A stretch of DNA of 64,000 nucleotides from assembly GCA_964401055.1 (NCBI GenBank), contig CAYNWW010000002.1, positions 39,935 to 103,934 of the forward strand, given 5' to 3'. The position numbers were made by a program, and so were the translations under genes. Shown one piece after another: positions 742-59,399 of this stretch. This stretch comes from an uncultured Candidatus Saccharibacteria bacterium (GTDB lineage Bacteria; Patescibacteriota; JAUYIX01; CAYNWW01). The stretch's first letter is position 1, and every line of letters begins with the position of its first letter. The notes under the pieces were generated by a model that saw nothing but the letters and a program-made list of their open reading frames with translations, was not told the DNA's origin and searched no databases.

Positions 742-1155
742 TTATTTCAATTCAGCTGTTGCGCCTGCTTCTTCAAGTTTCTTCTTCAATTCTTGTGCTT
801 CTTTTGCTGGAACAGCCTCTTTCAACATTTTTGGAGCGCCGTCAACGAGGTCTTTCGCTTCTTTCAAGCCTTTGCCCGTGATTTCGCGAACGATCTTGAT
901 CACTGCGATTTTGTTGGCACCGGATGTCTTGAGCTCGACATTGAACTCAGACTTCTCTTCACCTGCAGGAGCTGCTGCGCCTGCTGCTGCCGGCATCATG
1001 CCGCCTGCCATTGCAACTGGAGCTGCTGACACGCCAAACTTCTCTTCGAGCACTTTCACGAGCTTTGAAAGCTCAAGAACGCTCATTTTTTCGATCTGCT
1101 CAACGATTGCTTTGAATTCTGCTGGAACCTCAACTGCCTTCATTTCTTCTGACAT
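742..1155 (-). CDS. rplL: 50S ribosomal protein L7/L12
   Basis: The 137-aa protein reads [42 protein letters not shown]...; it has an Ala/Gly/Pro-rich hinge and a C-terminal [17 protein letters not shown] segment characteristic of L7/L12. Confidence 0.95.
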
Positions 1156-1188
1156 GGATGTAATAGTTATAAAATTCGAAATAAATAC

Positions 1189-1722: not shown

Positions 1723-1994
1723 AGCTTAAAAATAAAAAAATCTGCGGCGTTCCGCAGGAAATACAAACCGCACGTGTGCATGGTCTGTATCCTCGATAGG
1801 ATTTATTCTTCATCAGAAACCTATGGTCTGCGGATAGAGCTAGTATAAAGGATTGGCGGATATTGTCAAGAATAGTGCGAGAAATTTCCCGCGCCGGCTG
1901 ATTTTTCGAGTTATCCACAGAGTGGAGCAAATTTTAGCATTTTTTAATGATTTTTTCACAAAAATTTTATCTTCGCCTGCTAAGGTACTCGTAG

Positions 1995-2636
1995 TTGATC
2001 GAATGCATCGATCAATATTCAACGGAGGAACAAGCAATGAATGCACGAATGTGGTTCAGTGCTATTGTGCTGTTTTGCCTCGAACTCCCTACGACACATG
2101 CCGGAAACAATAATGGCGGTCTCACCAAGGAGGAGGCCGTAGAGATTTCGGATCAGGCGATCAAAGGAGATTATATTTCCTATGATGAGCTACAGCCAGA
2201 AGAGCAGCACCAAGTTATAGAGCAAATCAAAAAGTTCGTGCCCGCTTCGATTGGAAATCTTCCACCATGCGCTCCGGGGTACTGGGGTGCCTACGGGGTT
2301 GGTGAACCAATTGAACAAAGGAATAGCACTGCAGGGCTTAATTACCAAATTGGACCCAATTGCTACCGCTGGGCGTCGGATAATAGCTGCGGCACGGATA
2401 ATAACGATCTCATGCTCAGCTTCTACTTCGGGAATCATGCCGAAAGCCTTGAGGATCTTCGTTCAAAGATCAGATGGTCTTCGACAAATCCAGTGATCAA
2501 CGTAATACCAAAAGTTCTCAGCGGACTGATCTACGAAAGAGTTAGGGGTGGTGGACGGGATGATTACAACATTTACGCCTGCATCCCAACTCCGTGGATC
2601 TACTTTGCTGACTCCTTCCTAATGCGGAAATACTAA
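1995..2636 (+). CDS. Hypothetical secreted Cys-containing protein. The likely true start is the internal M at ~2037, which opens a signal peptide (MNARMWFSAIVLFCLELPTTHA).
   Basis: The ORF carries a hydrophobic signal-peptide-like segment; I recognise no domain. Confidence 0.35.
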   Translation: MIECIDQYSTEEQAMNARMWFSAIVLFCLELPTTHAGNNNGGLTKEEAVEISDQAIKGDYISYDELQPEEQHQVIEQIKKFVPASIGNLPPCAPGYWGAYGVGEPIEQRNSTAGLNYQIGPNCYRWASDNSCGTDNNDLMLSFYFGNHAESLEDLRSKIRWSSTNPVINVIPKVLSGLIYERVRGGGRDDYNIYACIPTPWIYFADSFLMRKY

Positions 2637-2684
2637 ATTTTCCGCCTGATTCCAAAGAGAATATGACAATGCATCACTTGATAT

Positions 2685-2942
2685 TTGTCATATTCTCTTC
2701 TTCTTTTTTTTGTTATACTAATTTCAAATAACAATAGACACATGACAAACGATCGCGTAATCAAAATCCTCGTTGGGCTATTCATCATAGTTAGCCTCGC
2801 CATACACGCCTATGAACTTTATTTTGTCACACTTTTTAAAGAATTTGATGATGATTCGATTGAAATGGTTGCGCAGGCACAAAACGAGAAAAATGCCTGC
2901 CTAGATAAGCTAAAGAAGGCAGAAGCGGCACTTGTAAAATAA
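2685..2942 (+). CDS. Small single-TM membrane protein, hypothetical (probable start at the internal Met, ~2742).
   Basis: It has one hydrophobic helix followed by a charged C-terminal segment. Its architecture resembles that of the adjacent small ORF. Confidence 0.3.
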   Translation: MSYSLLLFFVILISNNNRHMTNDRVIKILVGLFIIVSLAIHAYELYFVTLFKEFDDDSIEMVAQAQNEKNACLDKLKKAEAALVK

Positions 2943-2958
2943 TAGTTTTTTACCAAAA

Positions 2959-3162
2959 ATGAGACCGCTTCGCACAACCGAAATCGTTATGATCTGCATT
3001 ATCATCGTAAGCGCACTTTTTCACGTTTTTGAAATTTTTGCGTTATCGATGGCTCGAGAACAAGAAAATGACAGTGCATATCTTTGCACGAAGGCATACG
3101 ACGAAAAATATGCATACATGGAAGAGCTTTCAAAGCTACAAGAGAAAACCGGCCAGAAATAG
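2959..3162 (+). CDS. Small single-TM membrane protein, hypothetical; possibly a weak tandem paralog of 2685..2942.
   Basis: It has an N-terminal hydrophobic helix (IVMICIIIVSALFHVFEIF) and an acidic/basic tail. Confidence 0.3.
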   Translation: MRPLRTTEIVMICIIIVSALFHVFEIFALSMAREQENDSAYLCTKAYDEKYAYMEELSKLQEKTGQK

Positions 3163-3182
3163 AAGGATCAACGGCACCGGAT

Positions 3183-4343
3183 CTATCTCAAGTATTTCGC
3201 CACATTTTTCTGGTGCTCATCAAACGTCTTTGCATAGATGACTTCGCCTGTCTGCGGAACAGTCAGGAAAAAGAAATAATCTGTCTGTGCGGGATTAATC
3301 GCGGCCTGGATTGCATCCATGCCCGGATTTGCAATTGGTCCGGGAGGCAGGCCGTTAATTTGATACGTATTATACGGCGTATTTGTTTTAGTAAACGCAC
3401 TTGCGTTGAGAGTTGGGTTAAGTGAAATCCCGTACTGAATCGTCACATCAGACTCTAGTCGTTTGCCTACCCGAAGACGATTGGTAAATACTCCGGCGAC
3501 TATTTTTTTATCTTGAGGAGTCTGAACTTCCTTCTCCAAAATACTTGCAAGCGTAATCACATCAGTCGACTTTCGCCCATCAAGCAGCAACTTCGCACGC
3601 ATATCATGCGTGAATTTTTTACCGAAGTTGCTAAGCATTTTGCGAATCAATATATCTGCGGTAGTTTTTTCATCCACGCGATAGGTATCGGGAAACAAAT
3701 ATCCCTCAAGTGTCGCCTTTGCGGGCAGCTCATGCACAAAATCGTAATCGTCAAAATACGCATGCGGACTTGCCACGCGCTTGGCAAAATCATCTGCATC
3801 AATAGTGCTCTGCGCACGAACCTGTTCTGTCATCTGCTTTGCCGTCCAGCCCTCGACAAATGTCAGGCTTTGCTCTATAAGGGCCTGTTTTTGATGCGCC
3901 AAGACATGAGCAATATCCTGCATCGTCATTGATGCATTCAAGTGGTACGTACCTGGCTGAAAATATCCAGAGATTCCCTCTTTCAAAGTAAGCCACTGAA
4001 ACACATACGCATTGCTGATTAATTTTTTATCCTGAAGGCGCTTACTGATATCGGCTACACGATCGCCCTGAGAAATAATAAAATCAGACGAAGCGGCTTT
4101 TGCTGCATCGCGCGTCACGGGCTGGCGCATCAGTTGTTGTGCGTAGAAATACCCGCCCACGCCCACGCCGGCAAGTATTAAGAAAAGTCCCGCAATAATA
4201 CCACAACAATTCCAAAATCTTCCGGTTTTTTTTGCGCGCTTGTGAGCGAGCGCTTCAAGCTCTGGCATAGGAACTTGCGAAGCGGGAGCCACAACTGGTG
4301 AGGACGGAACCTGAAATTGCTGACGAGGCGGTTGGATTTCCAT
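3183..4343 (-). CDS. mltG: Endolytic murein transglycosylase MltG/YceG family
   Basis: The 386-aa protein has an N-terminal TM anchor and the segment LASILEKE..DKKIVAGVFTNRLRVGKRLESDVTIQYG typical of the YceG/MltG family. Confidence 0.7.
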   Translation of the reverse strand: MEIQPPRQQFQVPSSPVVAPASQVPMPELEALAHKRAKKTGRFWNCCGIIAGLFLILAGVGVGGYFYAQQLMRQPVTRDAAKAASSDFIISQGDRVADISKRLQDKKLISNAYVFQWLTLKEGISGYFQPGTYHLNASMTMQDIAHVLAHQKQALIEQSLTFVEGWTAKQMTEQVRAQSTIDADDFAKRVASPHAYFDDYDFVHELPAKATLEGYLFPDTYRVDEKTTADILIRKMLSNFGKKFTHDMRAKLLLDGRKSTDVITLASILEKEVQTPQDKKIVAGVFTNRLRVGKRLESDVTIQYGISLNPTLNASAFTKTNTPYNTYQINGLPPGPIANPGMDAIQAAINPAQTDYFFFLTVPQTGEVIYAKTFDEHQKNVAKYLR

Positions 4344-4346
4344 ATG

Positions 4347-5462
4347 CTAGAGATATTGAGTGAATTTTTGCTGCTCGAGCATCTCGACAATCTTTTTGAT
4401 TTCTTGTACGCGATCAAGCGGACACACCAGCACAGCTTTATCAGTCTCGATCACTGCCATATCACTAAGACCAACAGTCGCGATCATTTTTCCGCTTGTG
4501 CCGTAAATTACGCTTCGCTTCGTATCGATAGTGAGATGCTCAGCTTGTGTAAGATTTTGATCGCCGGTGACGAGCAGGTCACGTAGCGCAGCAAATGAAC
4601 CAATATCCGTCCATCCGATATCGGCTGCAATCACTGCCATGTGCGGCGCCTGCTCGATGATCGCATAATCAATGGCGATTTTTTCCATATCGTGGTACTC
4701 GGTCTTAAGCACTTCTTGCTCGCGCGGCGTACCGATTGCATCGTGAATTCGCATCAAGCGCGCATACATATCTGGACGAAATTGTTTGAACAGATCAAGG
4801 ATTGTCGATGCCTTCCAGACAAACATATTTGCATTCCACAAAAATGTTCCGGCTTTGACAAACTGCTCAGCGACGTCACGCGCAGGCTTTTCCTTAAACT
4901 GTTTTACTTTATACACTTGGTGCTCGCCCACCTTCTCCATTTCAACGCCCATCTCGATATAACCATAGCCTGTTTCGGCATAGCTTGGCTTGATGCCTAT
5001 CTCCACCAAATGATGCGGATGCTTTGCGACAAACTCAGCGCCCGCGCGAATTGCGCCCACAAACGTGTCTGAATACTTAATCACATGATCAGAGCCCAAG
5101 CTTGCAATAATTGCTTCCGGATCCGCATGATGCGCATACACAGCTTCCAGGCCGATTGCAGCCGCCGTATCTTTGCGCTCCGGCTCAACGATAAAAAGTG
5201 GCTGCACATGCTCAACGCCTTTCAACGTTTTGAGTGTCTGAGTGGCTTGCGCCTGGGCATGCGATAAAAATTGCGCATTCGTAGAAATGATAAGCTGGTG
5301 CTTTTGCTCTTGAAGCAAAACCGCAAGACGACGGATTGTAAGCTCAAACGTACTTTCATCCTTAATCATCGGATAAAATTGCTTGGGCATTTGTTGCGTA
5401 CTCAACGGCCATAATCGCGTCCCGGCTCCACCCGCACGAATCACAATGTGCATACAGGTCAC
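4347..5462 (-). CDS. manC: Mannose-1-phosphate guanylyltransferase (nucleotidyltransferase family)
   Basis: The N-terminus IVIRAGGAGTRLWPLS...PKQF is the sugar-nucleotidyltransferase G-x-G-T-R motif. The 371-aa size fits a GMP/ManC-type enzyme. Confidence 0.7.
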   Translation of the reverse strand: MTCMHIVIRAGGAGTRLWPLSTQQMPKQFYPMIKDESTFELTIRRLAVLLQEQKHQLIISTNAQFLSHAQAQATQTLKTLKGVEHVQPLFIVEPERKDTAAAIGLEAVYAHHADPEAIIASLGSDHVIKYSDTFVGAIRAGAEFVAKHPHHLVEIGIKPSYAETGYGYIEMGVEMEKVGEHQVYKVKQFKEKPARDVAEQFVKAGTFLWNANMFVWKASTILDLFKQFRPDMYARLMRIHDAIGTPREQEVLKTEYHDMEKIAIDYAIIEQAPHMAVIAADIGWTDIGSFAALRDLLVTGDQNLTQAEHLTIDTKRSVIYGTSGKMIATVGLSDMAVIETDKAVLVCPLDRVQEIKKIVEMLEQQKFTQYL

Positions 5463-5516
5463 TTAGATATTATGCTCACAGCATAGCACAAAACCGACCG
5501 TCTGGTCACGCCACAA

Positions 5517-6221
5517 TCAGGAGCCAAAATTGCGCTTGCGTGCACGAAAATCCTGAAGCGCGGCGTCAAATTCGGCTTCTGTAAAATCGGGCCAAAGCGT
5601 ATTGGTAAAATAAAGTTCGCTGTAAGACGACTGCCACAACAAAAAATTGCTGAGTCGTTGCTGACCGCCCGTACGAATAATCAGCTCGGGATCTTTTTGC
5701 GATGTCGTATACAGATGTTGCTGAATCAGTTCTTCAGAAATCTGGTCCGGCGCCGTGCCCGCGACAACAAGCTCGCGCACTGCGTGAACGATCTCGCCGC
5801 GACCTCCATAACTCAATGCAATGTTAAGAGTAAGCTGCTGGGAATTGTTTTCAGCCAAATAGCGCGTTGTTTTTTCAAGCGCCTCGCGAACATATTGCGG
5901 AAAATCAGCAATCTCACCGATTGCGCGGAGATGAATCCCGTTTGCAAACAATTCCGCGCGCTTCTTGCGCAAAAATCTCACAATCAACCGAAGCAAGTAC
6001 GTGATTTCCTGCTTTGTACGGCGCCAATTTTCAGTCGAAAAAGCATACACAGTGAGCGTTTTGACACCTCTGCGAATGCAGGCCTTCATGATATTTTCCA
6101 AAGCCTCAACACCTTTTTCGTGTCCCTTGATGCTCGGAAATCCGCGCGTCGTTGCCCATCGTCGATTACCATCCATAATAATAGCAACGTGCTCTGGGAC
6201 AATTTGTGGCGAGTGAGTCAT
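5517..6221 (-). CDS. uppS: Undecaprenyl-diphosphate synthase (cis-prenyltransferase)
   Basis: The sequence HVAIIMDGNRRWATTRG...TVYAFSTENWRR...SYGGR is the conserved signature of the UPP synthase family. Confidence 0.9.
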   Translation of the reverse strand: MTHSPQIVPEHVAIIMDGNRRWATTRGFPSIKGHEKGVEALENIMKACIRRGVKTLTVYAFSTENWRRTKQEITYLLRLIVRFLRKKRAELFANGIHLRAIGEIADFPQYVREALEKTTRYLAENNSQQLTLNIALSYGGRGEIVHAVRELVVAGTAPDQISEELIQQHLYTTSQKDPELIIRTGGQQRLSNFLLWQSSYSELYFTNTLWPDFTEAEFDAALQDFRARKRNFGS

Positions 6222-7384
6222 TAGGATGATCGATCAACCATATAATCAAGAATTCCTTCCAGAAAATCAGAAGTTTCTTGCGTAAAATGAATGCGTTCCA
6301 GCTCGGACAAGGCTTGCTCTTTGTGCATATTCATCTGCTGCATACAATATTCTTCCGCACCGATCGTGCGCAGAATTTCTTGGGTTCGCGCGACATCCGC
6401 GGCGGTCAAATTTTTATTCCCAAGCGCATGATTCAAAGCCGAAAGCTGATCTCGATCAGCATGCGCACGCGCAAAATGCACCAGAATAGTTTCCTTACCT
6501 TCTTTGATGTCTGATCCAACCGGCTTGCCGATTTTTTCTTCCGTTCCAAACATGCCAATCACATCGTCGCGTATTTGATAGATCAATCCCACGTGATACG
6601 AGAACCGCGCCAGCGCCTTGAGCGTATTTCGATCCTCAACGCCGGCCAGCCTCGCCGCCATCATGAGCGGCCCCTGCATGGTGTATTGAGCAGTTTTCAA
6701 ATCATAAATTTGCAAAATATCCGACTCGTGAATATCGCCAAAAAGACTTTTCCAGACATCGATAAGCTCGCCGTAGCCGGCTTTTTGCGTCATGACGTTG
6801 AGCTCCCGCATGATAGAAATTTTCATCGCCGAGTCAATCTCGAGAGCGAGTAATAAATCTTGCGCAAATGTTTGCAAAATATCTCCGGCAACAATCGCCA
6901 TAGACTCACCCACATGACGCGTGCGCGGTGTGATCTCATGCGCATCAAGACCAACAGAACGACTGTACAGGCCGCGATACAATTCGTGCATAGCCGGACC
7001 GCCACGACGCAGGCGATCTTCATCGATAATGTCATCGTGCACGAGCAAGTAGGCATGAATAAGTTCAGCCGCAACGCCACAGGTCAACGCAGACTGTTCA
7101 TCCTTACCGCCAAATCCTTTGTACGCCATATACAGGAGAGCAGGACGAAAACGCTTGCCCGGCCTGAGCAAAAAATCTTTGATATAAAAAAGAAGCTGAT
7201 CGATTTCGCGCAAACCTCCCCCCTCCGAATCTGCGAACTCAAGGCGCAATTCACGCGCTTTTTGATCTATCGTTGCAGCAAGAAGCGGATCTATATGTTG
7301 TCGTTGAAGAGATTTGAGAGTGCTAATAGCTGAATTTTTGAGCGCTTCCGAGGTGATCTCGGAGGTAACAGTTGAAGAAGGCAT
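6221..7384 (-). CDS. trans-Polyprenyl diphosphate synthase (FPP/GGPP synthase family); chain length cannot be determined from sequence.
   Basis: The first aspartate-rich motif is LLVHDDIIDED and the second is IRDDVIGMFG. At 387 aa it is longer than a typical IspA. It overlaps the uppS start by 1 nt. Confidence 0.85.
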   Translation of the reverse strand: MPSSTVTSEITSEALKNSAISTLKSLQRQHIDPLLAATIDQKARELRLEFADSEGGGLREIDQLLFYIKDFLLRPGKRFRPALLYMAYKGFGGKDEQSALTCGVAAELIHAYLLVHDDIIDEDRLRRGGPAMHELYRGLYSRSVGLDAHEITPRTRHVGESMAIVAGDILQTFAQDLLLALEIDSAMKISIMRELNVMTQKAGYGELIDVWKSLFGDIHESDILQIYDLKTAQYTMQGPLMMAARLAGVEDRNTLKALARFSYHVGLIYQIRDDVIGMFGTEEKIGKPVGSDIKEGKETILVHFARAHADRDQLSALNHALGNKNLTAADVARTQEILRTIGAEEYCMQQMNMHKEQALSELERIHFTQETSDFLEGILDYMVDRSS

Positions 7385-7420
7385 GAGTGTTGAGGTATAA
7401 GTTCCTGAATTGGCTTTTTA

Positions 7421-9349
7421 TTATACCAAAGGAACTCGGACAAAAAAAGTGCTTCCCCGACCTTCGCCTGCGCTCTCTACCCACACGTCTGCATTTTGAA
7501 CTTTGAGAAGATTTTTCACAACGTAGAGACCAATACCCGATCCGCTGGTGTTGATCTTGTTGCTATTTTTGCCGCGGGAAAATTTCTGGAACAATTGGGT
7601 AATTTCTTCCGGGCTAATACCCACGCCAGTGTCACGAATTTTGATAATGAGATCCGGGCGCTTGATTTCCGTGCTAATTTCCACATAGCCTTGGGGCGTG
7701 TATTTGATCGCGTTGTCGATCAGGTTTGAGAATACTTCGGTCATTTTTGTCGGATCCGCTTTCACGAGGGGCCAGACGCTTGACGGAGTAACGATCAGGC
7801 GAATGTGCTTTGGCTCAGCGATCGGTTCGAGCTCTTTGACGATGTTGGTGACGATGTCTTTCAGTTTTACCTTGAGAATCTCCACTTTCAGGCGGCCCCC
7901 TTCGATGCGCGACACGTTGAGGAAATCGCTCACGAGCTGGATGAGCCGGTTGGTGTTTTCATAGACAATGTCCACCACTTCATCTTGCTGCTTGGGGATT
8001 GGGCCGAAATCACCTGCTTTGAGCATGGAGAGATAGCCTTTGATGCCGGAGAGCGGCGTGCGGAGTTGGTGCGAGGCGATGGAGAGGAATTCGGATTTGA
8101 TGTTGTCGATGCGCACGAGCTCTTGGTTCACTTCGTTAAGTTTTGCGGCGCGCTCTTTTTCCGTCACATAGAGACGGGCATTTTCCATACCGACACCGAC
8201 TTGCGAGGCAAATGAATTCATGAGCTCTTTGTCGCGATCAGTAATTTCAGCAATGGACTTGTCGAGAAGAAAAATAAGCGAGCCGAGAATTTTCTCTCTC
8301 ACAATAATCGGCACAGCCGCACCCGCTTTCATGCCCACAAGAGACTGCATCGCATTTGCAGTTACTTTTGGCAAAGCGCTTTGCGAAACCAAATCTGAAA
8401 AATCACTCGTGACAATGAGTCGACGCTCTCTGATTGATCTGCTTGATGCGCTTTCAGAAATGTCCACTTGCGCTTCGTGCTCCAAAAAAGGCTTCTCGAG
8501 CATGCGCTGCGCCTGAGAAATGAGAGGAATGTTGGTCACCGCAAACGCCTTGTTCATGCGCGTCTCCCAATTCATAATCGTCAGGATGCCACCAATAAAT
8601 CCGAGGTGTTTCAGGTTGGAAGGAATGCTGTCGACCACCTGCTGCCCCACTGTCCCGAAGTCGAGTGTCTCAGTGGTTGTCTTAACTATTTCAAAGAGTG
8701 CGCGCAGGTCTTTTGCTTGAGCGTCGTAGGCTTTGATTTGTCCTTGGAGCTTGTCGAAGAGTTGGGCGTTGTAGAGCGCGATGGAGATTTGGTTGGCAAA
8801 TATTTGAATTAAATCAAGGTCGTGCTTACTTATTACTTGTTGATCAAATGCCACGGCCATAGCACCAATCGCCTCCTCTTTTACCATTAGCGGAATAGCA
8901 AGCATTGTCTTGAGTCGTAAAACACCCTGAACATATCCAGATGCGTCTTTTGAAAGCAATGGATAAGTAAAGCTACTCAACTTATCAGATTTTTCTATTT
9001 TTTTATTTTTTACTGCTTGAACCAAAATATTTTCTTTTTCTTCCATTGAATAGCCCAAATCATGAACCGATCTATTCATTGCCTTTTCGGCAAAATTCAC
9101 TAGAATTTTTGGGAAGCGAAAATCTCTCAATAGTAGCTTTTTCCCTTCGCCATTCAAAACATACAAACTCGGAAGTTTTAACTGCAGGAGCTTTACGAGC
9201 CTATCTAAAATTAATCTAATAACTGCACCAGAATCAACAAAACCCGTAATAGCACCCGTAATTTCTTTTAGCAGCAGAATCTCTTCCCTGTTGACATACA
9301 ACTCTTTTTCCTGATCGGGCGCTTTTTTCCTAAGAATTCCTAGAAACAT
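7421..9349 (-). CDS. Cytoplasmic sensor histidine kinase with GAF domains, HisKA and HATPase_c. The ORF extends to 9424, but the Met at ~9349 is the likelier start, which keeps the overlap with the upstream gene small.
   Basis: The H-box reads SIASHQLRTPLSGIKGYLSML; N/G1/G2 boxes occur at the C-terminus (DTGVGISPEE..GSGIGLYVV); there is no TM segment. Confidence 0.8.
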   Translation of the reverse strand: MFLGILRKKAPDQEKELYVNREEILLLKEITGAITGFVDSGAVIRLILDRLVKLLQLKLPSLYVLNGEGKKLLLRDFRFPKILVNFAEKAMNRSVHDLGYSMEEKENILVQAVKNKKIEKSDKLSSFTYPLLSKDASGYVQGVLRLKTMLAIPLMVKEEAIGAMAVAFDQQVISKHDLDLIQIFANQISIALYNAQLFDKLQGQIKAYDAQAKDLRALFEIVKTTTETLDFGTVGQQVVDSIPSNLKHLGFIGGILTIMNWETRMNKAFAVTNIPLISQAQRMLEKPFLEHEAQVDISESASSRSIRERRLIVTSDFSDLVSQSALPKVTANAMQSLVGMKAGAAVPIIVREKILGSLIFLLDKSIAEITDRDKELMNSFASQVGVGMENARLYVTEKERAAKLNEVNQELVRIDNIKSEFLSIASHQLRTPLSGIKGYLSMLKAGDFGPIPKQQDEVVDIVYENTNRLIQLVSDFLNVSRIEGGRLKVEILKVKLKDIVTNIVKELEPIAEPKHIRLIVTPSSVWPLVKADPTKMTEVFSNLIDNAIKYTPQGYVEISTEIKRPDLIIKIRDTGVGISPEEITQLFQKFSRGKNSNKINTSGSGIGLYVVKNLLKVQNADVWVESAGEGRGSTFFVRVPLV

Positions 9350-10232
9350 GGTTTTTTTCGTTTTTGAATATACTCGTGTCAATTTTATCACTAAAATCCC
9401 ATTTTTTGTAAAATGCGAAGGCAAGGCTGGCTACGTTCAAACAAAAATCTTTCAGATCAGAATTATCATGTTTGCGCAGGTCGTTAGAAAGTAATTCTAT
9501 ATCCTTCTGCGCTGTAGCAAATATTAATTCTTTTGCCTCTTTAACTTTTAAATTCTTCCGCTCTAATAAGAACGATACCGCATTCACTTTCCCTTCTTCT
9601 TGCTCTTTTTCAAATGACCTAACATCATTCGCTAGCCTCGTAACAAGAAACAATCTATCGGCGCTTCTAAGAAATTTTTCCAACTCCTTGGCTGACTTAT
9701 GAGCCACTCGCTCATTAGAGAGAATAAAACATGACAAGAATAATGGCGTACCTATACTATACTTACCCTGCTCGATATATTCGCCCTCATCTACTTTAGC
9801 ATGTAATATTCTATTTGTATTTTCAAAAATCATTGCGTCAAGAGTTTTTGATAATGTTTGCTTCCAATAGTCTAGCAAAAATTTTCTTTTCACTTTGCCG
9901 CATAAAGAGTCAGTTATCTCTGAAATAATGCTTTGATAGTCAGCAAAAGCATCAATTTGCTGCTTTTTAAGTCCTGCAGCAAATAGGTCTTTAAATTTTC
10001 TTACATCTGACAGGCTAGCATTTGTATCAAGGTAATCGTCAATAGCAAATAGCCAAAGAACAACCTTGCTTAGAATAAGCTTGCTTTCAATATCAACCTG
10101 AAGCTTTTTCGTTGTATAATCCACAAAAAAACAGCTATTCTCGATACGAGAGCTCCTAACTACTGTGTGCGAATTCGCCCATTGACTAATATCACGTACG
10201 AGCACATCGTATGTACCACTACTATCTTTCAT
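9330..10232 (-). CDS. Class I terpene synthase (small bacterial terpene cyclase fold)
   Basis: A DDxxD metal-binding motif occurs in LWLFAIDDYLD. An NSE/DTE triad, LANDVRSFEKE, lies about 140 residues downstream. The spacing and the 300-aa size fit bacterial class I terpene synthases. Confidence 0.6.
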   Translation of the reverse strand: MKDSSGTYDVLVRDISQWANSHTVVRSSRIENSCFFVDYTTKKLQVDIESKLILSKVVLWLFAIDDYLDTNASLSDVRKFKDLFAAGLKKQQIDAFADYQSIISEITDSLCGKVKRKFLLDYWKQTLSKTLDAMIFENTNRILHAKVDEGEYIEQGKYSIGTPLFLSCFILSNERVAHKSAKELEKFLRSADRLFLVTRLANDVRSFEKEQEEGKVNAVSFLLERKNLKVKEAKELIFATAQKDIELLSNDLRKHDNSDLKDFCLNVASLAFAFYKKWDFSDKIDTSIFKNEKNHVSRNS

Positions 10233-10241
10233 ACACTTAAA

Positions 10242-11621
10242 TTAATAATGACTAAAAAGACTACTTGTTGCATAAAGGCATTTATCAATCCAACAATAGG
10301 TGTTTTTCATAATCCTGGGATTAAAAATCTGCTCAACAAAAGATTTATCTACTAACACTTTATTAAGCAAAATTCTTTCAATATTTATCCAAAACGGATC
10401 ATATTTTAACATTGGCCGATTTAGAACTTTATTCTCTCCAAAGACCTTCAAAATTAACATTGCCGGATAATAAGGAGAGACATGCCACTTATCGTGAAAC
10501 AGTTTGCCCTCTTCTTGAAATTTTAATAACCGCCTGAAAATTTTTTCTTCGACCTCTTTGTCGTTATAACCAACCTCTTGTATAGCCTCTAGCAAATGCG
10601 CAATATGTGATGGACTAGACTCCATTTCTCCCCGAAAACAATAAATCCTATCACCATCAATAAATTTTCTTATAACTTCATGATTTACATCGACATTATT
10701 TTTTGAAAAAATTTTTATCGCGACAGCTGTATCATCCAAATCAGGAATATTTACAAATTTTGACCAACCGATTCCTCTATCATTATTCCAGTATTTTTTT
10801 AAATATTGGACGGCCTCATCTATATCATTCTGTAGATATTTTTCTATTTTAAGGTAATATATCTCACTCAAAACCCACAATCTAGCGAATATATCAATCG
10901 GGTAGTTCACGGGTAGAGCATTTTTAAATTTTTTTAGTGTACCTTTTATATAAGCAAGTGCAGCCTGATTCTTTGTCTTTAGAAACATAAAGGCAGTAGA
11001 CGAAGGGGAATTCAGAAATGATCCGTTCTCTGATTGTTGAACAAGGATCTTCTTATAATCCAGCAGACCCTCCAAGCCCTCCAAAGAATGAAGCAGCGTT
11101 GTCTGGCCGCTATATATATAAGCGACAGGAATCATTTTTAATTTTAGCTCCCTAGCCATTTCGATTTCTTGAATGATCAGACTATCGTACCTAAGCTTAA
11201 TTCCTAAAAACCGCGCAGTTTTTAATAGTGCGGGAAAGATTATCTCAAACCCCACAGTAGCTCGTGCGTCATTCCTTAAATTTTCTAGGTTGGCCGAGAT
11301 ATACTCCTCTCCCCTTTTGATCCTTCTAGGAGAGACGTTCCAGGTTTTTAAAGCAATTATAGAGCTTAATGTGCAGATAATTCTGTCATGATAATATTCT
11401 ATCCCCTTAGCCCCCCACGAGCCGTCAGCAATCTGATGAACCTGTAGCCAGCGAAGACACTCTGGAAACATTGGGCGACTAGGATCTTCTTCGGAGGGAA
11501 TACGCGCAACCCAAGCGGTATCATATGCAGAAGGCGAGATATAGCCTTCATCAATATTGCGGAGCAGTCTTTTTGCCTTTCCAACAAGAGCTCTTTTGAA
11601 TTTTTCCTCTTTTATAAGCAC
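10242..11621 (-). CDS. Class II diterpene cyclase (copalyl/halimadienyl-diphosphate synthase-like, DxDD type)
   Basis: The catalytic DxDD motif occurs as NIPDLDDTAVAI. The N-terminal SAYDTAWVA motif is characteristic of CPS-type class II cyclases. A QW-like QVHQIADGSWG motif is also present. The protein is 459 aa. Confidence 0.65.
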   Translation of the reverse strand: MLIKEEKFKRALVGKAKRLLRNIDEGYISPSAYDTAWVARIPSEEDPSRPMFPECLRWLQVHQIADGSWGAKGIEYYHDRIICTLSSIIALKTWNVSPRRIKRGEEYISANLENLRNDARATVGFEIIFPALLKTARFLGIKLRYDSLIIQEIEMARELKLKMIPVAYIYSGQTTLLHSLEGLEGLLDYKKILVQQSENGSFLNSPSSTAFMFLKTKNQAALAYIKGTLKKFKNALPVNYPIDIFARLWVLSEIYYLKIEKYLQNDIDEAVQYLKKYWNNDRGIGWSKFVNIPDLDDTAVAIKIFSKNNVDVNHEVIRKFIDGDRIYCFRGEMESSPSHIAHLLEAIQEVGYNDKEVEEKIFRRLLKFQEEGKLFHDKWHVSPYYPAMLILKVFGENKVLNRPMLKYDPFWINIERILLNKVLVDKSFVEQIFNPRIMKNTYCWIDKCLYATSSLFSHY

Positions 11622-11692
11622 GGTATTTACAATAAGCCTAAATTATATAAATTATAACACGACAACCTAATTTTCGATATTGTTGAACTTAA

Positions 11693-12973
11693 TCATAGGG
11701 AGTACAATTTCTCATCTTCATATATCGGAAATTTCAAAACGAATTCACTGCCAATTCCTCTTTTGCTCTGTACGGTAATTTCTCCCTTGTGCGCGTCCAT
11801 GATCTGTTTTGCTACAAATAGTCCAATGCCATCGCCCTCTTCTCGTTGCACAACATCTTGATGCGATCTATAAAACTTTTGAAATATACGATCAAGATCT
11901 GACGCGTCAATTCCAACACCGGTGTCTTGCACCGATACGCAGCTCATATGCGCATCATCAAACGCAACAACACGCACAGCCCCTCGCTGCGGTGTGTATT
12001 TAATCGCATTTATCAGCACATTATCAATCACTTCAACGACTCGCATTTGATCACAAAAAATTCTTTTCTTTGCTTTCAGATCAGACACCACGCTTAGATG
12101 CTTTTGCACAAAAAGCGGACGCAGCGAGTCAAGCTCTTTTGCAACCAAAAAATTCAAATCAACGACAGTTTTCTCTCCTGACTCAACATTGTGACCTGAC
12201 AATGTTCTCTGCCCAAATCGCCGAATAACCGCATGCAGGTTGTCGGCGGAATTCATTATCGATCGAATATTTACATCGTTCTTCTGATTTTTATCCGTCA
12301 TCTGCAACAACTCAGCATTTCCCTTAATCGCGGTGAGAGGATTTTTCAATTCGTGCGAAGCTTCAGCAAAAAATTGAGACTGCAACTCCGCATGCATACG
12401 CGCAGAATAAATTGCTCCGCCAACTGCATTTGCAACCGCCTCCAAAACATCAACGTCACGATCAAACATAAATTCATCATTGGCAACAAGTGCCAAGCCG
12501 CCTATCACTTTCTTGCCAAGCTTGATCGGTAAGGCAATAAACAATTTATATCGAAACATCGCCTGCAGCACGTCACAATTACGCTTAGAAACAATAGGAA
12601 ATAAAATATCAGATAGTCGCGTCGTAGTAAACAATTTTCCTTCCCGCAATGCACGCGCCGATAGTAACGTTGGGTGATTCACATCTAGTACGAGGCCGGC
12701 CAGCGCTTTTTGTGAAAATTTTTCCAAGAAATTTTGAAATTTATATGGCATTTGCACTCGTACGACACGAAATGTTTTTTCGTCCTTGCTCATAAGCGTA
12801 ATGCCAGAAACGCGATATCCAAGTTGAACCAAGAGCTCCTTGAGTGCAATGCGACAAATATCGTCTACATCAAAGTTTCCCGATATTTTTGCAGATACAC
12901 TTTTAATTAAGCTCAGCTGAGCCTTATATGTTGCAATTATCTCATCTTCAGTCGGATAAAGTCTCTTTGTCAT
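11693..12973 (-). CDS. Cytoplasmic sensor histidine kinase (GAF + HisKA + HATPase_c). It probably starts at the Met of AMTKRL, giving an ATGA overlap with the upstream HK stop.
   Basis: The H-box is ASHELKNPLTAIKGNAELLQ; the C-terminal ATPase boxes are DTGVGIDASDL..GDGIGLFVAKQ. I checked the ATGA overlap directly in the sequence (cat at 12971-12973, tca at 12970-12972). Confidence 0.8.
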   Translation of the reverse strand: MTKRLYPTEDEIIATYKAQLSLIKSVSAKISGNFDVDDICRIALKELLVQLGYRVSGITLMSKDEKTFRVVRVQMPYKFQNFLEKFSQKALAGLVLDVNHPTLLSARALREGKLFTTTRLSDILFPIVSKRNCDVLQAMFRYKLFIALPIKLGKKVIGGLALVANDEFMFDRDVDVLEAVANAVGGAIYSARMHAELQSQFFAEASHELKNPLTAIKGNAELLQMTDKNQKNDVNIRSIMNSADNLHAVIRRFGQRTLSGHNVESGEKTVVDLNFLVAKELDSLRPLFVQKHLSVVSDLKAKKRIFCDQMRVVEVIDNVLINAIKYTPQRGAVRVVAFDDAHMSCVSVQDTGVGIDASDLDRIFQKFYRSHQDVVQREEGDGIGLFVAKQIMDAHKGEITVQSKRGIGSEFVLKFPIYEDEKLYSL

Positions 12974-14898
12974 AGCGGTATTTGCACAACAAACTCCGCA
13001 CCCTTCCCTATCTCGCTCTTCACGCTTATCGTCCCACCATGCGTCTCCACGATTGACTTGCAAATCGCAAGCCCGAGGCCGGTGCCACCAAGTGCCTGAT
13101 CGCGCTCCTTGTCGACTCGGAAAAATCGCTGAAAAAGAAGTGGAATTTTATCAGCCGGAATCCCGGGACCAAAATCACGTACGGTAAAATGACACATATT
13201 CTGCTTCTTGTACGCGTTGATCAAAATACGCTCGTTGCTCGGGCTGTATTTAATAGCATTGCTTATCAAATTCGAAACAACCTGAGCCATTCCATCCCCA
13301 TCGAAAAACCCGATCAGCGGCGACTGCACGCTCGTCTCAAATCGGACACGTTTTGTGTTTGCCAAAGGCCTCAAAGCCTCGAGCTCGCGAAAAAAAATAT
13401 CAGCAATATCCACATTTTCACGGTGCAATTCGCGCGAACCACTTTCTTGTTGAGACAACAAAAGCAACTGACTGACCGCTCGCGTCATGCGATTGGCAGA
13501 CTGAATAATGTGATGCAACGCATCGCGCGACTTATCACCCGCAACAGGATTCAACAAGGAAACCATTTCCGCATTTCCTTTAATTGAGGCGAGTGGATTT
13601 TTCAACTCGTGCGACGTATTTGCCAAAAATAAAACCTGAGCTTCGTTCAATTTCTGCAGCTCTTTGACGTGAGCGCGCAAATCCTGAGAAAGCTGTGCGT
13701 GCTCGATTGAGCTCGCGATATGATGCGCAAATGTTTGCAGGAGATCGAGCTCCGATTCCGTTGTTCCGTCGGTAAATTTCGAAACAGAAAGCACTCCGAT
13801 GGCATGGTCGCCCACGATCAAAGGTATGGCCACAACTGTTTTGACGCCAACAGCTTTTTGCACAAGCTGAGCTGCTGCGTTGTTAATGAGTGGATGTGCA
13901 GCTTCGCCATAATCATTCGTCACAAAAACTTTTTTATCACAAAACGCACGCACAAATATATTTTTCTTATCTTCAAGAGAAAATTCAACCTGCGAGAGCG
14001 CCGTGTTGATCGCAAAACCGAATATATGCTTCTGAGTTTCGGTCGCGGCTAACTTCTCGAGGACCAACTTATTTTGTCTCTGGATAAATAATCCCGAAAT
14101 ATCATATCCAAATTGTTTACGTAAGCTCGCAGTAATTGCATCAAATACCTCTTTCACATCAAGCGACTGATTAATCAATGCCGTGGACTCAAGTATGGAC
14201 TTGAGCTGGTCTGATTGTTTTTTTACAAAAGCAATTTGCTTCTGATTTTCCTCAAACTTTTGCGCATTGGAGAGCGCGACTGCGATTTGATTTGCAAATG
14301 TCTGATAGAGCTGCGTATCGGTTTCGCTTATTCGCGCATCCTCAAATCCCATCGTAATCACGCCGATGGACTTTTGTTGCACAAGCAGCGGGATGGCTAT
14401 CGCACTTTTTGATCCCGCCAATCGCTGAAACCCACGGCCCACATACGCAGGAGCAACTCCGCGCACAAAGTCAGCAAAATCTTCAGAATACAACATGCGC
14501 TGCTCAACAAAAGAGCGAACAACAATATTTTCCCTCTGTTCAAGTAGAAAATAGAGACTATTAATTTTCTGCTTCATAGCCTTCTCTACAAAGCGGACTG
14601 CGCGGGTACTGTTATTTGTTCCCTTGCACACTAAGCGCTGCGCCAGCTCATCCCACAAAAATAGCGTTGGCGTTTTTATACCCACGATTCCCGACACCCG
14701 GAATAAAATATGATCAATAAGTTTATTTGTATTATTGATACTGGATATTTCTTGAAGTATGGATTGAAAAATTGTCAGGATGTGCGCGGCCGATTTTACC
14801 TCATTCGACACCTGCTGCAGCCCAATCAACTGATCAACAAAACGCCGCTCCGCGCCCGTCGCCTGTTCTTGTTTTTGCTCAGTATTGATCAGCGTCAT
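12970..14898 (-). CDS. Cytoplasmic sensor histidine kinase with tandem GAF domains, HisKA and HATPase_c
   Basis: The H-box is NTSHELKNPLASIKGNAEMV; it has two GAF-like regions, ATPase boxes at the C-terminus, and no TM segment. Confidence 0.8.
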   Translation of the reverse strand: MTLINTEQKQEQATGAERRFVDQLIGLQQVSNEVKSAAHILTIFQSILQEISSINNTNKLIDHILFRVSGIVGIKTPTLFLWDELAQRLVCKGTNNSTRAVRFVEKAMKQKINSLYFLLEQRENIVVRSFVEQRMLYSEDFADFVRGVAPAYVGRGFQRLAGSKSAIAIPLLVQQKSIGVITMGFEDARISETDTQLYQTFANQIAVALSNAQKFEENQKQIAFVKKQSDQLKSILESTALINQSLDVKEVFDAITASLRKQFGYDISGLFIQRQNKLVLEKLAATETQKHIFGFAINTALSQVEFSLEDKKNIFVRAFCDKKVFVTNDYGEAAHPLINNAAAQLVQKAVGVKTVVAIPLIVGDHAIGVLSVSKFTDGTTESELDLLQTFAHHIASSIEHAQLSQDLRAHVKELQKLNEAQVLFLANTSHELKNPLASIKGNAEMVSLLNPVAGDKSRDALHHIIQSANRMTRAVSQLLLLSQQESGSRELHRENVDIADIFFRELEALRPLANTKRVRFETSVQSPLIGFFDGDGMAQVVSNLISNAIKYSPSNERILINAYKKQNMCHFTVRDFGPGIPADKIPLLFQRFFRVDKERDQALGGTGLGLAICKSIVETHGGTISVKSEIGKGAEFVVQIPL

Positions 14899-14906
14899 CG
14901 TATGTA

Positions 14907-15869
14907 TTAAGACTTTTTCTTCACCCGCGAGCGAGCGCGACGACTCACCCCGGCAGCCCCACGTTTTTTTGCAGCGACTGCATGCCGTTTCTTTGCCACA
15001 GCCCGAGCCGCAAACTCTGCAGCGGCCACCTTCGCGGCTCTATTCTTGTGATATGGACGCGGCGCCCCAGAATCAGACTCGGCACTAGCCCCGTCAGCCC
15101 CGCCCACTTTCACCAAAATCGGCCGCAACGCCGAAGGCCGCACATAATTTTGCGCATGTGCCCGCGCCGCAGCGCCTTTGAGTTTTTCCAGCTTATACCC
15201 CACACCATGCTGCGTATGAATGAGCTGATCAGCGCCCGCACACCCCAACGCCTTTCGCAAAAAACGAATATGCACGTCGATCGTATTTGTAAACGGATCC
15301 GTGTTCATGTCCCACACTTGCTCGAGCAGCATTGTGCGCGTCAACACCATCTCGGGATTGCGCAAAAAATATTCGAGCAGCGCAAATTCTTTTTTTCCAA
15401 GGGCCACCTCCCGACCGGCACGTTTCACAATTCGCTTTGGCAAATCCATTTCAATATCCTCATAAGTCAGCACTGAGCCACCCGCCTTCCCCGAAGAAAC
15501 AATCTCTCGCCGACTCAACGCACGAATCCGCGCAAGCAATTCTTCAAAAGAAAATGGCTTTGTTAAATAATCATCAGCACCCGAATCCAGCGCCGCCACT
15601 TTTGTTTGAGTGTCGTCCTTGGCAGTCAACAGCAAAATAGGTTTTGTTTTATTTTTCACTCCGTGCTCACGAAGCTGGCGGGTCAACTCCAGCCCGTCCA
15701 TCACCGGCATACTGATATCAAAAATAAATAAATCATACGGGTTTGTTTTTGCCAAATACAAACCCTCACCCCCGTCGTGCGCCACATCAACCACATGATG
15801 AAACGTGCGCAAGCCCTTACTCACAAAATTACTGATCGCCGGCTCATCCTCAACAAAAAGGATCTTCAT
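14907..15869 (-). CDS. OmpR-family response regulator (REC + winged-helix) with a ~90-aa Lys/Arg/Ala-rich C-terminal tail
   Basis: The N-terminus MKILFVEDEPAISNFVSKGL...DLFIFDISMPVMDGLEL is a receiver domain; a Trans_reg_C segment follows (LTRTMLLEQVWD..GVGYKL); the tail ...AKVAAAEFAARAVAKKRHAVAAKKRGAAGVSRRARSRVKKKS follows that. Confidence 0.85.
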   Translation of the reverse strand: MKILFVEDEPAISNFVSKGLRTFHHVVDVAHDGGEGLYLAKTNPYDLFIFDISMPVMDGLELTRQLREHGVKNKTKPILLLTAKDDTQTKVAALDSGADDYLTKPFSFEELLARIRALSRREIVSSGKAGGSVLTYEDIEMDLPKRIVKRAGREVALGKKEFALLEYFLRNPEMVLTRTMLLEQVWDMNTDPFTNTIDVHIRFLRKALGCAGADQLIHTQHGVGYKLEKLKGAAARAHAQNYVRPSALRPILVKVGGADGASAESDSGAPRPYHKNRAAKVAAAEFAARAVAKKRHAVAAKKRGAAGVSRRARSRVKKKS

Positions 15870-16079: not shown

Positions 16080-16131
16080 AAAAAAATGTTTGTGTCAACG
16101 AAGGATCTAGAATCCCTCGCTGACACAAACA
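16080..16131 (-). terminator. Rho-independent terminator of the 584-aa gene: an 11-bp perfect inverted repeat, followed on the minus strand by a U7 run.
   Basis: The arms tgtttgtgtca ... tgacacaaaca are perfect and plus-strand A7 sits at 16080-16086. The structure begins 22 nt after the stop at 16154. Confidence 0.6.
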
Positions 16132-16153
16132 CTGATCTGACCGCACGCCTCCT

Positions 16154-57614: not shown

Positions 57615-59399
57615 TTAGTTTTGATCAAGCGGAATAAAACAATAAAAAGTACTCCCTAGTCCCTCTTCAGAGCTCACCCCAACAATCCCTCGATGCGCTT
57701 CAACAATTCCTTTCGCAATAGCAAGACCGAGACCCGTTCCCTTTTTTTCACTTTTTACCCTTCCGTTCACCTGCTTAAACTTGCTAAAAAGACTAGGTAT
57801 ATCACTTGGAGCAATGCCAACCCCACTATCCGTGACGGCAACAAATATACCGGGCGGCAATTTCTTGAGTCTTTCCTCGGAGTCCTTAATAAACCATTCA
57901 ATAGAGGCAGCTCCAGCCTCAGCTGCAATATCACCCGCATTTGCATGCATCAAGACGCTAATGGTGACTCGGCCGCCTTTTCCGGTAAATTTAAGCGAAT
58001 TAGATATAAAATTGTTCAAAACTTGACCGATTTTATTTGCGTCAAACAAAATCATCTCCGGTACGTGCTCGTCAATCACTGCATGTAGCTTGATTCCAGA
58101 ATCTTTTGCCAAGGGGCCAAATGCATGAACTTTCGCCTTAACCACATCTCGAATATTTGATGGTTCCACAAAAATTTGAAATTTTCCTGCTTCTATTTTT
58201 GCTTGATCAAGAAGATCATTTACTAGTTCAATCATGCTCTCCACATTACTACCCATGAGCGAAATCATTTCCTTATACTCTTTTTTTCCTGGCTTGAGAA
58301 TTCCCTCTTTAAGAAGCTGAATAGTTGAAGAAGTTCCCACAAGCGGCGTTCGCAGCTCATGCACCATCATAGATGTAAAATCTTCACGCAATCGCTCAAC
58401 TTCTTTTTCGTGAGTGATATCATGAAAAATTACTACACCGCCAAGTATTTCTTCTCCCGAAACTCCAGTTTTATTCTCGACAGGAGATACAAAAATTTGA
58501 TAAAACCTATCATGAACAAGAACATCATCTAGCGTGATTATCTTTTTCAATTTTACGCTTTCCTCAAGACGGCCTCTGATATCAAATGCACCGCCCAAGC
58601 CGTCTATAAGATCAAAAATTAAAACTTCAATTTTCTCTTCAATGCCGACGATTTTTTTTGCAGCGGGATTTATTGCCAAAATCCGATACTCCTTGTCAGT
58701 CATAACAATCCCCTCAACCATACTCTCTATCATAGAGTTGAGCTTCCGTTGTTCGTTTTCGACAACATCCTGAAGTCTACTTACGGCCTGTGATGCCTGC
58801 TTTGTAATTTTATACAAAATACTTGTTTCACTTTCGTTGTACTGACCTTCTTTTGTGTCAGCAACAGTCAATACACCAACTACCTTATTGCCAATCACCA
58901 GCGGTATATTGAAAAATGACCGAACAGGATCTTGAATTTCATCAACAGTAATTGCGCCAGAAATTACCGGTTCAACCTGACTTTTACTCAAATCTTTATC
59001 CAATAAAGCGGAGAGCGACTTAAGCATACGCCCTTTTATATCTTCGATAAACAGAGGCGAAACCGATCTCTCAAGATTTGCTTTAAAAATTATTTTCTCG
59101 GGCCCCAAAAGCATATAAGATACAACGCTATAATCCATAAAGGAGCGCAGTGATCCCGTAATCATGTCAGCAACATTCTGGACGTTGAGCGAATACCCAA
59201 CTCGCTCACCCAAATCCTTCAAAATCGCCAATTCATACAGACGATGACTAATTTCCTTTTCTTTCTTTTCGTTCTCTGTTTTGATTTTTTTCTCGAGCTC
59301 CTTTAGTCTGACGTCAACCCTCCTCCCTCTCAAAAATACAAACACAGTTGCACCAATAGACAGCACTAAAGCGGAAAAAAGTATGACGAGATCAGACAT
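57615..59399 (-). CDS. Membrane-anchored sensor histidine kinase (TM - GAF - PAS-like - HisKA - HATPase_c)
   Basis: It has an N-terminal TM (LVILFSALVLSIGATVFVFL), an H-box MVHELRTPLVGTSSTIQLL, and ATPase boxes (DSGVGIAPSD..GTGLGLAIAKG). Confidence 0.85.
   Translation of the reverse strand: MSDLVILFSALVLSIGATVFVFLRGRRVDVRLKELEKKIKTENEKKEKEISHRLYELAILKDLGERVGYSLNVQNVADMITGSLRSFMDYSVVSYMLLGPEKIIFKANLERSVSPLFIEDIKGRMLKSLSALLDKDLSKSQVEPVISGAITVDEIQDPVRSFFNIPLVIGNKVVGVLTVADTKEGQYNESETSILYKITKQASQAVSRLQDVVENEQRKLNSMIESMVEGIVMTDKEYRILAINPAAKKIVGIEEKIEVLIFDLIDGLGGAFDIRGRLEESVKLKKIITLDDVLVHDRFYQIFVSPVENKTGVSGEEILGGVVIFHDITHEKEVERLREDFTSMMVHELRTPLVGTSSTIQLLKEGILKPGKKEYKEMISLMGSNVESMIELVNDLLDQAKIEAGKFQIFVEPSNIRDVVKAKVHAFGPLAKDSGIKLHAVIDEHVPEMILFDANKIGQVLNNFISNSLKFTGKGGRVTISVLMHANAGDIAAEAGAASIEWFIKDSEERLKKLPPGIFVAVTDSGVGIAPSDIPSLFSKFKQVNGRVKSEKKGTGLGLAIAKGIVEAHRGIVGVSSEEGLGSTFYCFIPLDQN

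Follow-up and report, generated by a model that had tools for sequence, protein, structure and literature searches.

We analysed a 64,000-nucleotide stretch of DNA from an uncultured Candidatus Saccharibacteria bacterium (contig CAYNWW010000002.1; hereafter the window), in which a block of AT-rich DNA covers two adjacent diterpene synthase genes, TPS2 and TPS1, and the start of a neighbouring sensor histidine kinase gene, HK1. The block is probably (at about 0.6) the hypervariable core of an old, conserved module of a diterpene synthase pair and GAF-domain sensor kinases in a Patescibacteria chromosome. The locus is a mosaic rather than a simple recent gene insertion, and the dip in GC is at most an allele replacement inside the conserved module, not a new insertion. 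A recent insertion into this lineage is not supported, because another genome, represented by the contig L166, shares the gene order, the dip and the boundary within the kinase gene, and a third, represented by the contig L167, shares the dip and the boundary.

The AT-rich block and the junction within HK1

The window has an overall GC content of 47.2%. A two-boundary maximum-likelihood segmentation run on 6-16 kb delimited the block with a log-likelihood gain of 51.5, confirming the AT-rich island that an initial annotation of this DNA had described by eye. The 1-kb bins 9001-10000 (35.2% GC) and 10001-11000 (33.3%) are the lowest pair in the window; the lowest bin elsewhere, at 58 kb, has 38.2%. 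The background given in the initial annotation, ~50-58%, was too high: it is about 47%, and only 18 of the 64 bins reach 50%. The tetranucleotide signature of the block, corrected for base composition, correlates with that of the rest of the window at r = 0.44, against 0.83 +/- 0.07 for other 3-kb segments (z = -5.7, the lowest of 123). Both measures, GC and tetranucleotides, mark the block as compositionally foreign. Its features are as follows.

8781..11780, no strand: AT-rich block, 36.1% GC against 47.0% in the flanks (maximum-likelihood segmentation)
8900..11020, no strand: sharply AT-rich core, 34.4% GC, comprising the C-terminal half of TPS2, the whole of TPS1 and codons 1-150 of HK1
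11622..11692, no strand: intergenic spacer upstream of TPS2, 23.9% GC
10242..11621, minus strand: TPS2, predicted class II diterpene cyclase, gamma-beta didomain, 459 residues, DxDD at residues 294-297
10233..10244, minus strand: TPS2/TPS1 junction, the TAA stop of TPS2 and three codons (FKC), then the ATG of TPS1
9330..10232, minus strand: TPS1, predicted class I terpene synthase, alpha domain, 300 residues, with the motifs DDYLD and NDVRSFEKE
7421..9349, minus strand: HK1, predicted soluble GAF-GAF-HisKA-HATPase kinase, 642 residues, compositional junction at about codon 150
8900..9349, minus strand: first 150 codons of HK1, AT-rich, encoding the variable portion of GAF domain 1

Both edges of the AT-rich core lie inside genes. 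The drop in GC begins within TPS2 near codon 200, not at the gene edge (41-45% GC over codons 1-200, 28-36% over codons 201-459). TPS2 as a whole has 36.9% GC and a GC content at third codon positions (GC3) of 0.34, and TPS1 has 35.7% and 0.33. At the other end, the 5' part of HK1 (8850..9349) has 37.4% GC and the remainder (7421..8849) 48.8%, as the initial annotation had it. GC3 takes values of 0.32, 0.42 and 0.22 over codons 1-150 and of 0.45-0.72 from codon 200 on; counted as 48/150 against 284/492 for the rest of the gene, the step is significant (Fisher p = 4.6e-8), and the internal compositional junction at about codon 150 is real. A second kinase gene, HK2, had also been placed in the low-GC block. 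It is indeed low (41.9% GC, GC3 0.39), but only mildly, lying about 1 standard deviation below the gene mean (47.4%, standard deviation 4.8, for the 50 open reading frames (ORFs) examined).

Other moderately low-GC genes occur in the window: a 203-residue ORF at 25850-26461 has 38.2% GC, and two ORFs within 57615-62231 have about 40%, one of which (57615..59399) matches histidine-kinase families. Outside it, the class II gene lies 8-11 GC points under its flanks in the unrelated higher-GC contigs L103, L104, L121, L123, L124 and L085, and has the same GC as its flanks in many other contigs.

A shared module in distant genomes

The genes from 15869 down to 3183 are all minus-strand genes, with very small gaps or overlaps between them, in the order OmpR-type regulator, HK3, HK2, TPS2, TPS1, HK1, trans-prenyl diphosphate synthase, UppS, nucleotidyl transferase and YceG. 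The features around the core are the following.

16086..16132, minus strand: strong terminator-like hairpin preceding the regulator gene
14907..15869, minus strand: OmpR-type response regulator (Pfam), C-terminal tail rich in Ala, Lys and Arg
12970..14898, minus strand: HK3, GAF-GAF-HisKA-HATPase kinase, 642 residues, host-like composition
11693..12973, minus strand: HK2, GAF-HisKA-HATPase kinase, 426 residues, mildly AT-rich, its start overlapping the HK3 stop by 4 nt
6221..7384, minus strand: trans-prenyl diphosphate synthase (Pfam PF00348, FARM motif), host-like GC of 48.1%
5517..6221, minus strand: UppS, undecaprenyl diphosphate synthase (Pfam PF01255), a conserved downstream neighbour

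L166, a contig from JGI, is syntenic with positions 1-15869 of the window over 16.7 kb. It carries, in order, the regulator, a kinase, the class II and class I genes, the HK1 orthologue, the prenyl synthase, UppS, an extra gene, the nucleotidyl transferase, YceG, L10, L12 and a sortase. Protein identity to the window is 64% for UppS, 62% for the regulator (a fragment in L166), 55% for the nucleotidyl transferase, 48% for HK1, 43% for the prenyl synthase, 42% for YceG, 37% for the class II protein and 31% for the class I protein. The dip is present in L166 as well: the upstream kinase, class II and class I genes have 32-34% GC against 42-45% downstream, and in the kinase gene GC3 rises from 0.26, 0.28 and 0.22 to 0.36-0.58 at the same aligned codon as in HK1 (Fisher p = 2e-4). 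At the nucleotide level, BLASTN found similarity between the window and L166 at 15395-15187, within the regulator gene, then none until 8914 (HK1 codon 145), below which it is patchy in what remains of HK1 and in every gene downstream. L167, also from JGI, has the order prenyl synthase, GAF protein, class II, class I and kinase, with a dip of 38-40% against 47-53% GC and the same kinase boundary (Fisher p = 9e-3). The flanks of the window, L166 and L167 share a tetranucleotide signature (r = 0.75-0.85), from which the core of each deviates as an outlier within its genome. The offset of the core is about -0.10 to -0.12 in three genomes.

These observations bear on the origin proposed in the initial annotation, in which the cyclase pair and sensor modules were acquired horizontally and integrated into a resident two-component locus. 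As a single recent transfer from a low-GC donor into a locus without cyclases, fusing a foreign sensor to the resident kinase, this origin is improbable, and it was already largely refuted by L166, a syntenic relative that carries the cyclases in the same place with a similar composition. The initial annotation had named such a find as refuting its proposal, although for close relatives, and those concerned here are distant (42-64% amino-acid identity). The atypical GC and tetranucleotides of the block and the sharp GC3 step in HK1 would fit such a transfer, as would the presence of low-GC Patescibacteria contigs (L081, 34%; L086, 30%) among the nearest class II homologues. However, L166 and L167 have the same slot, dip and kinase boundary at this level of protein divergence. 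Synonymous sites are saturated at such divergence, and a donor signature should be erased by amelioration. We also found no integrase, adjacent tRNA or flanking direct repeats at the block, whose neighbours are kinases and isoprenoid genes; a repeat search returned kinase paralogy and chance matches only.

The fusion part of that proposal can be followed along HK1 itself. Its closest homologue, 48% identical, is P0245, the protein at the same position in L166, and each third of HK1 is nearest to the cyclase-linked kinases of other genomes and not to HK2 or HK3. We rejected the model of a foreign sensor fused to a resident paralogue, since all segments fit cyclase-linked kinases better than HK2/HK3. 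Of the chimeric kinase suggested in the initial annotation, the junction at about codon 150 stands, with mosaics at this junction in closer genome pairs (see below), whereas a fusion with the HK2/HK3 paralogues does not.

One further comparison would fit such a recent insertion. L168, a relative of L167, has kept the GAF protein and the kinase and has no cyclases, so that L167 carries them where its relative has none. The difference (L167 5771-10050 against L168 9298-10038) takes in the prenyl synthase as well as both cyclases, and the flanking proteins are 60-65% identical. The extra prenyl synthase gene of L167 has a host-like GC of 0.516 and its cyclase genes 0.38-0.40; a host-like gene among those missing from L168 argues against a single low-GC import. 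In L168 itself, positions 1-2100 have ~60% GC against 35% for the rest of the contig, and L017, which comes from the same assembly, bears the title Gammaproteobacteria; L168 may be a chimeric contig or belong to a mislabelled bin.

An assembly artefact, in which a fragment of a low-GC organism was joined through shared kinase sequence, is very improbable. The source is a metagenome-assembled contig of 107,366 bp and the junctions do lie in conserved kinase and cyclase sequence. Against this, assemblies made independently from other samples (JGI for L166 and L167; Logan for L170 and L171) have the same arrangement, dip and boundary, the reading frames are unbroken across both junctions, and two chimeric joins 2-3 kb apart would be needed.

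The rest of the window is chromosomal housekeeping sequence (prfA, prmC, atpA, atpD, dnaE, thrS). The best named relatives of its DnaE are Patescibacteria proteins (50-63% identity), which identify the host as a deep-branching member of that group. Exact look-ups of the window's own proteins gave no match, a scan of genome contigs with the prenyl synthase gave none above 35% identity, and the best match in a scan of metagenome contigs with the class II alignment was 46% identical. An Rfam scan returned tRNAs only; the four tRNA genes (Trp, Thr, Tyr and Thr) form a minus-strand cluster at 19274-20254, which lies 3.4 kb past the regulator and ~7 kb from the AT-rich block. The hairpin at 16086..16132 is the probable upstream limit of the transcription unit; a promoter scan gave 14 matches against 15.9 expected, and the spacer at 11622..11692 was likewise without an above-chance match. 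The regulator tail (~90 residues, 14907-15180, minus strand) is histone-H1-like and is encoded by a local GC peak of 58-61% near the AT-rich block; the L166 fragment ends at the equivalent of residue 228, without the tail.

A variable core beside a conserved kinase in closer genome pairs

Pairs of more closely related genomes show where the module varies. In the Logan assemblies L170 and L171 the layout is a GAF protein gene on the divergent strand, class II, class I and kinase. The flanking GatA, protease and PFK proteins are 78-82% identical between the two, the class II proteins 50% and the class I proteins 30%. The N-terminal half of the GAF protein, the end next to class II, is 24-38% identical. 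Within the kinase, residues 1-150 are 36-40% identical and residues 200 onward 54-82%, with 77% for the kinase core. Nucleotide similarity ends at L170 position 8763, is patchy in the class II gene, is absent over 11149-12685 and returns at kinase codon 174. The best matches of the L170 class I synthase and kinase N-terminus are in L166 and the window, not in L171.

A high-GC lineage (L120, L105, L106 and L140) has an operon of class II, class I, kinase and a REC-GAF-HD regulator. Between L120 and L105, the regulator is 93% identical and the kinase from residue 200 onward 76-96%, and kinase residues 1-200 fall to 24-44% and class I to 26%; the class II protein is 38-50% identical in its C-terminal half and 60-78% in its N-terminal half, and the upstream gene 70%. 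The trio L106, L120 and L140 gives a similar pattern, and in the pair L111/L127 identity goes from 94% to 73% and then to unalignable sequence at the cyclase. The regulator of this lineage (L120 14379-15854; also L105, L106 and L140) is REC-GAF-HD and not an OmpR-type DNA binder, which suggests a different output of the module, possibly through a phosphohydrolase.

Judged by these alignments, the module kinases of the closer pairs are demonstrably mosaics at this junction. Neighbour-joining trees of kinase residues 201-642 unite L170 with L171 (100% bootstrap), the window with L166 (99%) and L167 with L168 (100%); in trees of residues 1-150, both built on short alignments, the pair L170+L171 is lost. 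Residues 151-200 form the best-conserved N-terminal bin in every comparison. A correlation between the distance matrices of the class I synthase and the kinase N-terminus is only suggestive (rho = 0.67, p = 0.03, n = 10). A locus with variable synthases and kinase sensor part beside a conserved kinase core and regulator was found in L120/L105, L170/L171 and L106/L120/L140 and, at the nucleotide level, between the window and L166. The AT-rich core of the window (8900..11020) agrees in each of its parts with this variable core of the family. The association with the kinase extends beyond these cases: a same-strand kinase core lies within 5 kb downstream of the class II gene at 19 of the 33 distinct loci with enough flank, against a background in distant flanks of 0.24 per 5 kb.

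Composition adds a second regularity. Core GC3 is 0.24-0.38 across five hosts whose background GC3 is 0.25-0.55, and the 3' parts of the kinase genes range over 0.2-0.7, tracking the host. The core stands out in this 47% GC genome because its composition is roughly constant while the remainder of the kinase follows the host.

Several observations weigh against a variable core of fixed AT-rich character, or limit how far it can be read from these data. In both window/L166 and L167/L168, divergence in the kinase N-terminus does not clearly exceed that in the second GAF domain, and L167 and L168 remain sisters in the tree of residues 1-150 (99%). Support for conflicting splits in the trees is never strong (37% at best). 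In the low-GC hosts L170 and L171 the core shows no GC3 dip, and the dip is small in the high-GC operons, so AT-richness and hypervariability are not tightly coupled. HK3 is poorly conserved (28% identical to the same-position kinase of L166) and yet has host-like GC. L166 and L167 had been fetched through their kinases, and without them the linkage count is 17 of 31. The window also lacks a close relative (best identities of 57-63% for DnaE, 35% for the prenyl synthase and 44-49% for class II).

Purely vertical descent could account for part of the pattern. The core would then be under weak or diversifying selection, evolve several-fold faster and sit at an AT-biased mutational equilibrium, the flanks being kept GC-richer by selection or biased gene conversion. 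We regard this as possible, though doubtful as the whole explanation. It would agree with the near-constant core GC3 and its similar offset in three genomes, and with the order of GC3 in the window (0.33-0.65), where housekeeping genes are at the top (prfA 0.65, dnaE 0.64, atpA 0.60) and accessory genes at the bottom. GC3 also tends to track conservation against L166 (rho = 0.55, p = 0.07), and the similarity ranks of class II, class I, kinase and prenyl synthase are congruent, whether the window is compared with L166 or with L167. Vertical descent does not account for the class I synthase and kinase N-terminus of L170 being nearer to L166 and the window than to L171, although the kinase cores of L170 and L171 are so similar, nor for the ~70% upstream and 93% downstream of the junction in L120/L105, a signature of recombination. 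HK3, fast-evolving without being AT-rich, is a further exception, and a step within a gene is not predicted by selection at the level of genes.

The reading that we prefer, a hypervariable core in an old module, leaves room for both processes. The module is conserved in the class II N-terminal half, the transmitter core of the kinase, the response regulator and the neighbouring housekeeping genes; it is variable in the class II C-terminal half, the whole of class I, the upstream sensor gene and the downstream kinase up to residue 150-200. This variable portion would either evolve very fast or be swapped between lineages by recombination, with one breakpoint at the conserved motif that ends the variable part of the kinase's first GAF domain. 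With recombination, the core may be exchanged among lineages through crossover at this GAF motif; with fast evolution, it may undergo accelerated or diversifying change in place, near an AT-biased mutational equilibrium. In either case it would hold its AT-rich composition across hosts while the remaining kinase follows the host. The two are not mutually exclusive and both can yield the pattern. The affinities of L170 and the unequal divergence across the L120/L105 junction favour some exchange, and the data agree with a core that is exchanged horizontally, as one allele of an old module. In the case of the window, a test between exchange and diversification has no power, given how distant its nearest relative is. 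HK1 is most probably a mosaic like the kinases of the closer pairs, given its composition, the point at which nucleotide similarity to L166 starts and the analogy with those pairs, and we infer that its junction arose as theirs did.

Enzymes, known systems and a possible terpenoid signal

TPS2 is, by homology and by its DxDD motif, a class II diterpene cyclase. It matches Pfam PF01397 at 38.9 bits (cut-off 37.6), and over residues 5-386 its best solved-structure matches are the plant abietadiene synthase (3s9v, E = 2.8e-83) and Arabidopsis ent-copalyl diphosphate synthase (ent-CPS; 3pya, E = 3.9e-82); the best cyclase chain of didomain length (6vpt, 501 residues) is a much weaker match (E = 2e-40). 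The motif reads DLDD at residues 294-297, with D294 and D296 invariant in 23 homologues (alignment A1), and identity to many plant CPS sequences is 36-40%. Unlike the plant enzymes, TPS2 is bacterial, has no alpha domain on the same chain and lies in an operon with kinases. TPS1 is, by its alpha domain and metal-binding motifs, a class I terpene synthase (Pfam PF19086, 72.5 bits; PF03936, 60.1 bits; both DDYLD and NDVRSFEKE found).

Together, TPS2 and TPS1 (459 + 300 residues) are collinear with fused gamma-beta-alpha metagenome proteins of 738-788 residues, with an identity of 43-49% in the gamma-beta part and 24-29% in the alpha part (TPS1). They share a reading frame, and one substitution at the TAA would recreate a fused enzyme like that of L086 (3200-5497). 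In L166 and L167 class II and class I are likewise two genes, in different frames. Fused bacterial enzymes of this plant-like kind have been described (DCS) by Chen et al. 2024 (PMC11469919). The predicted proteins are new members of the bacterial plant-like diterpene synthases, though, as two polypeptides, not of the fused DCS: they share with CseDCS, ChjDCS and StrDCS the gamma-beta + alpha architecture and the DxDD, DDxxD and NSE motifs. In contrast to the single DCS polypeptide, the window has its two ORFs divided by an in-frame TAA followed by three codons, with a linker ~20 residues shorter; the halves of CseDCS were independently active after in vitro splitting (PMC11469919). Patescibacteria are not among the lineages named for five DCS genes in that paper, which describes neither linked kinases nor a hypervariable core, and in the literature that we searched, diterpene synthases were nowhere reported from Patescibacteria or the candidate phyla radiation.

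The per-segment identity of TPS2 and TPS1 to L166 and to the fused homologues gave a mixed signal. In a class II neighbour-joining tree, support around the window sequence (34-50%) is too weak to separate vertical descent from replacement; there, the sequences of the window, L086 and L166 branch as a grade immediately below a clade of fused bacterial enzymes and land-plant terpene synthases. Directly upstream of its fused gene, L086 has three tandem HTH(XRE)-GAF paralogues (795-3197; ~250-280 residues), a different type of sensor in the slot of HK2/HK3, and an HK1-like kinase follows the fused gene.

The known mechanisms of these families suggest a pathway. The neighbouring trans-prenyl diphosphate synthase, a probable supplier of precursor (its FARM motif gave no call on chain length), would supply geranylgeranyl diphosphate (GGPP); TPS2, through DxDD, would protonate GGPP and cyclise it to a copalyl-diphosphate-type bicycle; and TPS1, through DDxxD and NSE, would ionise the bicycle to give the final diterpene. 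In plant structures, the beta domain, with its DxDD motif, makes up most of the C-terminal half of a class II cyclase, and the final diterpene skeleton is fixed by the class I enzyme. The variable parts of the module would therefore be the product-determining parts of the enzymes and the ligand-binding part of the kinase. All three kinases of the window have GAF, HisKA and HATPase_c domains (Pfam), and no convincing membrane segment was found in any of them (maximum 19-residue hydropathy of 1.5-1.85, inside the second GAF domain).

This distribution of variable and conserved parts has parallels in bacterial signalling. The staphylococcal agr locus has a hypervariable agrB-agrD-agrC segment (PMC10482373); there too, the variable segment takes in the genes that make the signal and the sensor portion of the neighbouring histidine kinase, and the kinase core and regulator are conserved. 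The agr signal is a peptide and its sensor membrane-bound, whereas the window has terpene synthases and soluble GAF domains, and the likeness is one of layout. In Bacillus comQXPA, the isoprenoid-handling enzyme ComQ and the N-terminal sensor part of the kinase ComP are polymorphic, while the cytoplasmic kinase domain and ComA are conserved (PMC4008528); the difference is that ComQ prenylates a peptide pheromone, whereas no peptide gene was seen here and the enzyme families are others. The block resembles a classical genomic island in its atypical GC and oligonucleotide signature and its accessory biosynthetic content, and differs in its edges inside genes and its presence at the same site in distant relatives. 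Among three marks of a recent genomic island we found only atypical composition and neither mobility signatures (integrase, tRNA target, direct repeats) nor absence from relatives, the closest of which stands at ~60% DnaE identity.

By analogy with agr and comQXPA, we tentatively propose that the first GAF domain of the adjacent kinase may bind, as its ligand, the diterpene made by TPS2 and TPS1, and that the product-determining parts of the enzymes and the ligand-binding part of the kinase may diversify jointly, or be exchanged as a unit, as specificity types comparable to the pherotypes of those systems.

The analysis indicates that a GC dip which could be read as the scar of a fresh transfer can instead be a lasting feature of a locus. 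Here both dip and gene-internal boundary persist where about half of the protein residues differ, which simple amelioration does not predict. Plant-like diterpene synthases can now be placed in small-genome Patescibacteria, as a pair that a single stop codon separates from the fused form, which has been put forward as ancestral to the terpene synthases of plants. The repeated occurrence of variable synthase and variable sensor beside a kinase core and regulator that are conserved suggests that GAF kinases may sense terpenoids; if the proposal is correct, a diterpene signal and a cytoplasmic GAF receptor would exist in Patescibacteria and in at least one high-GC lineage.

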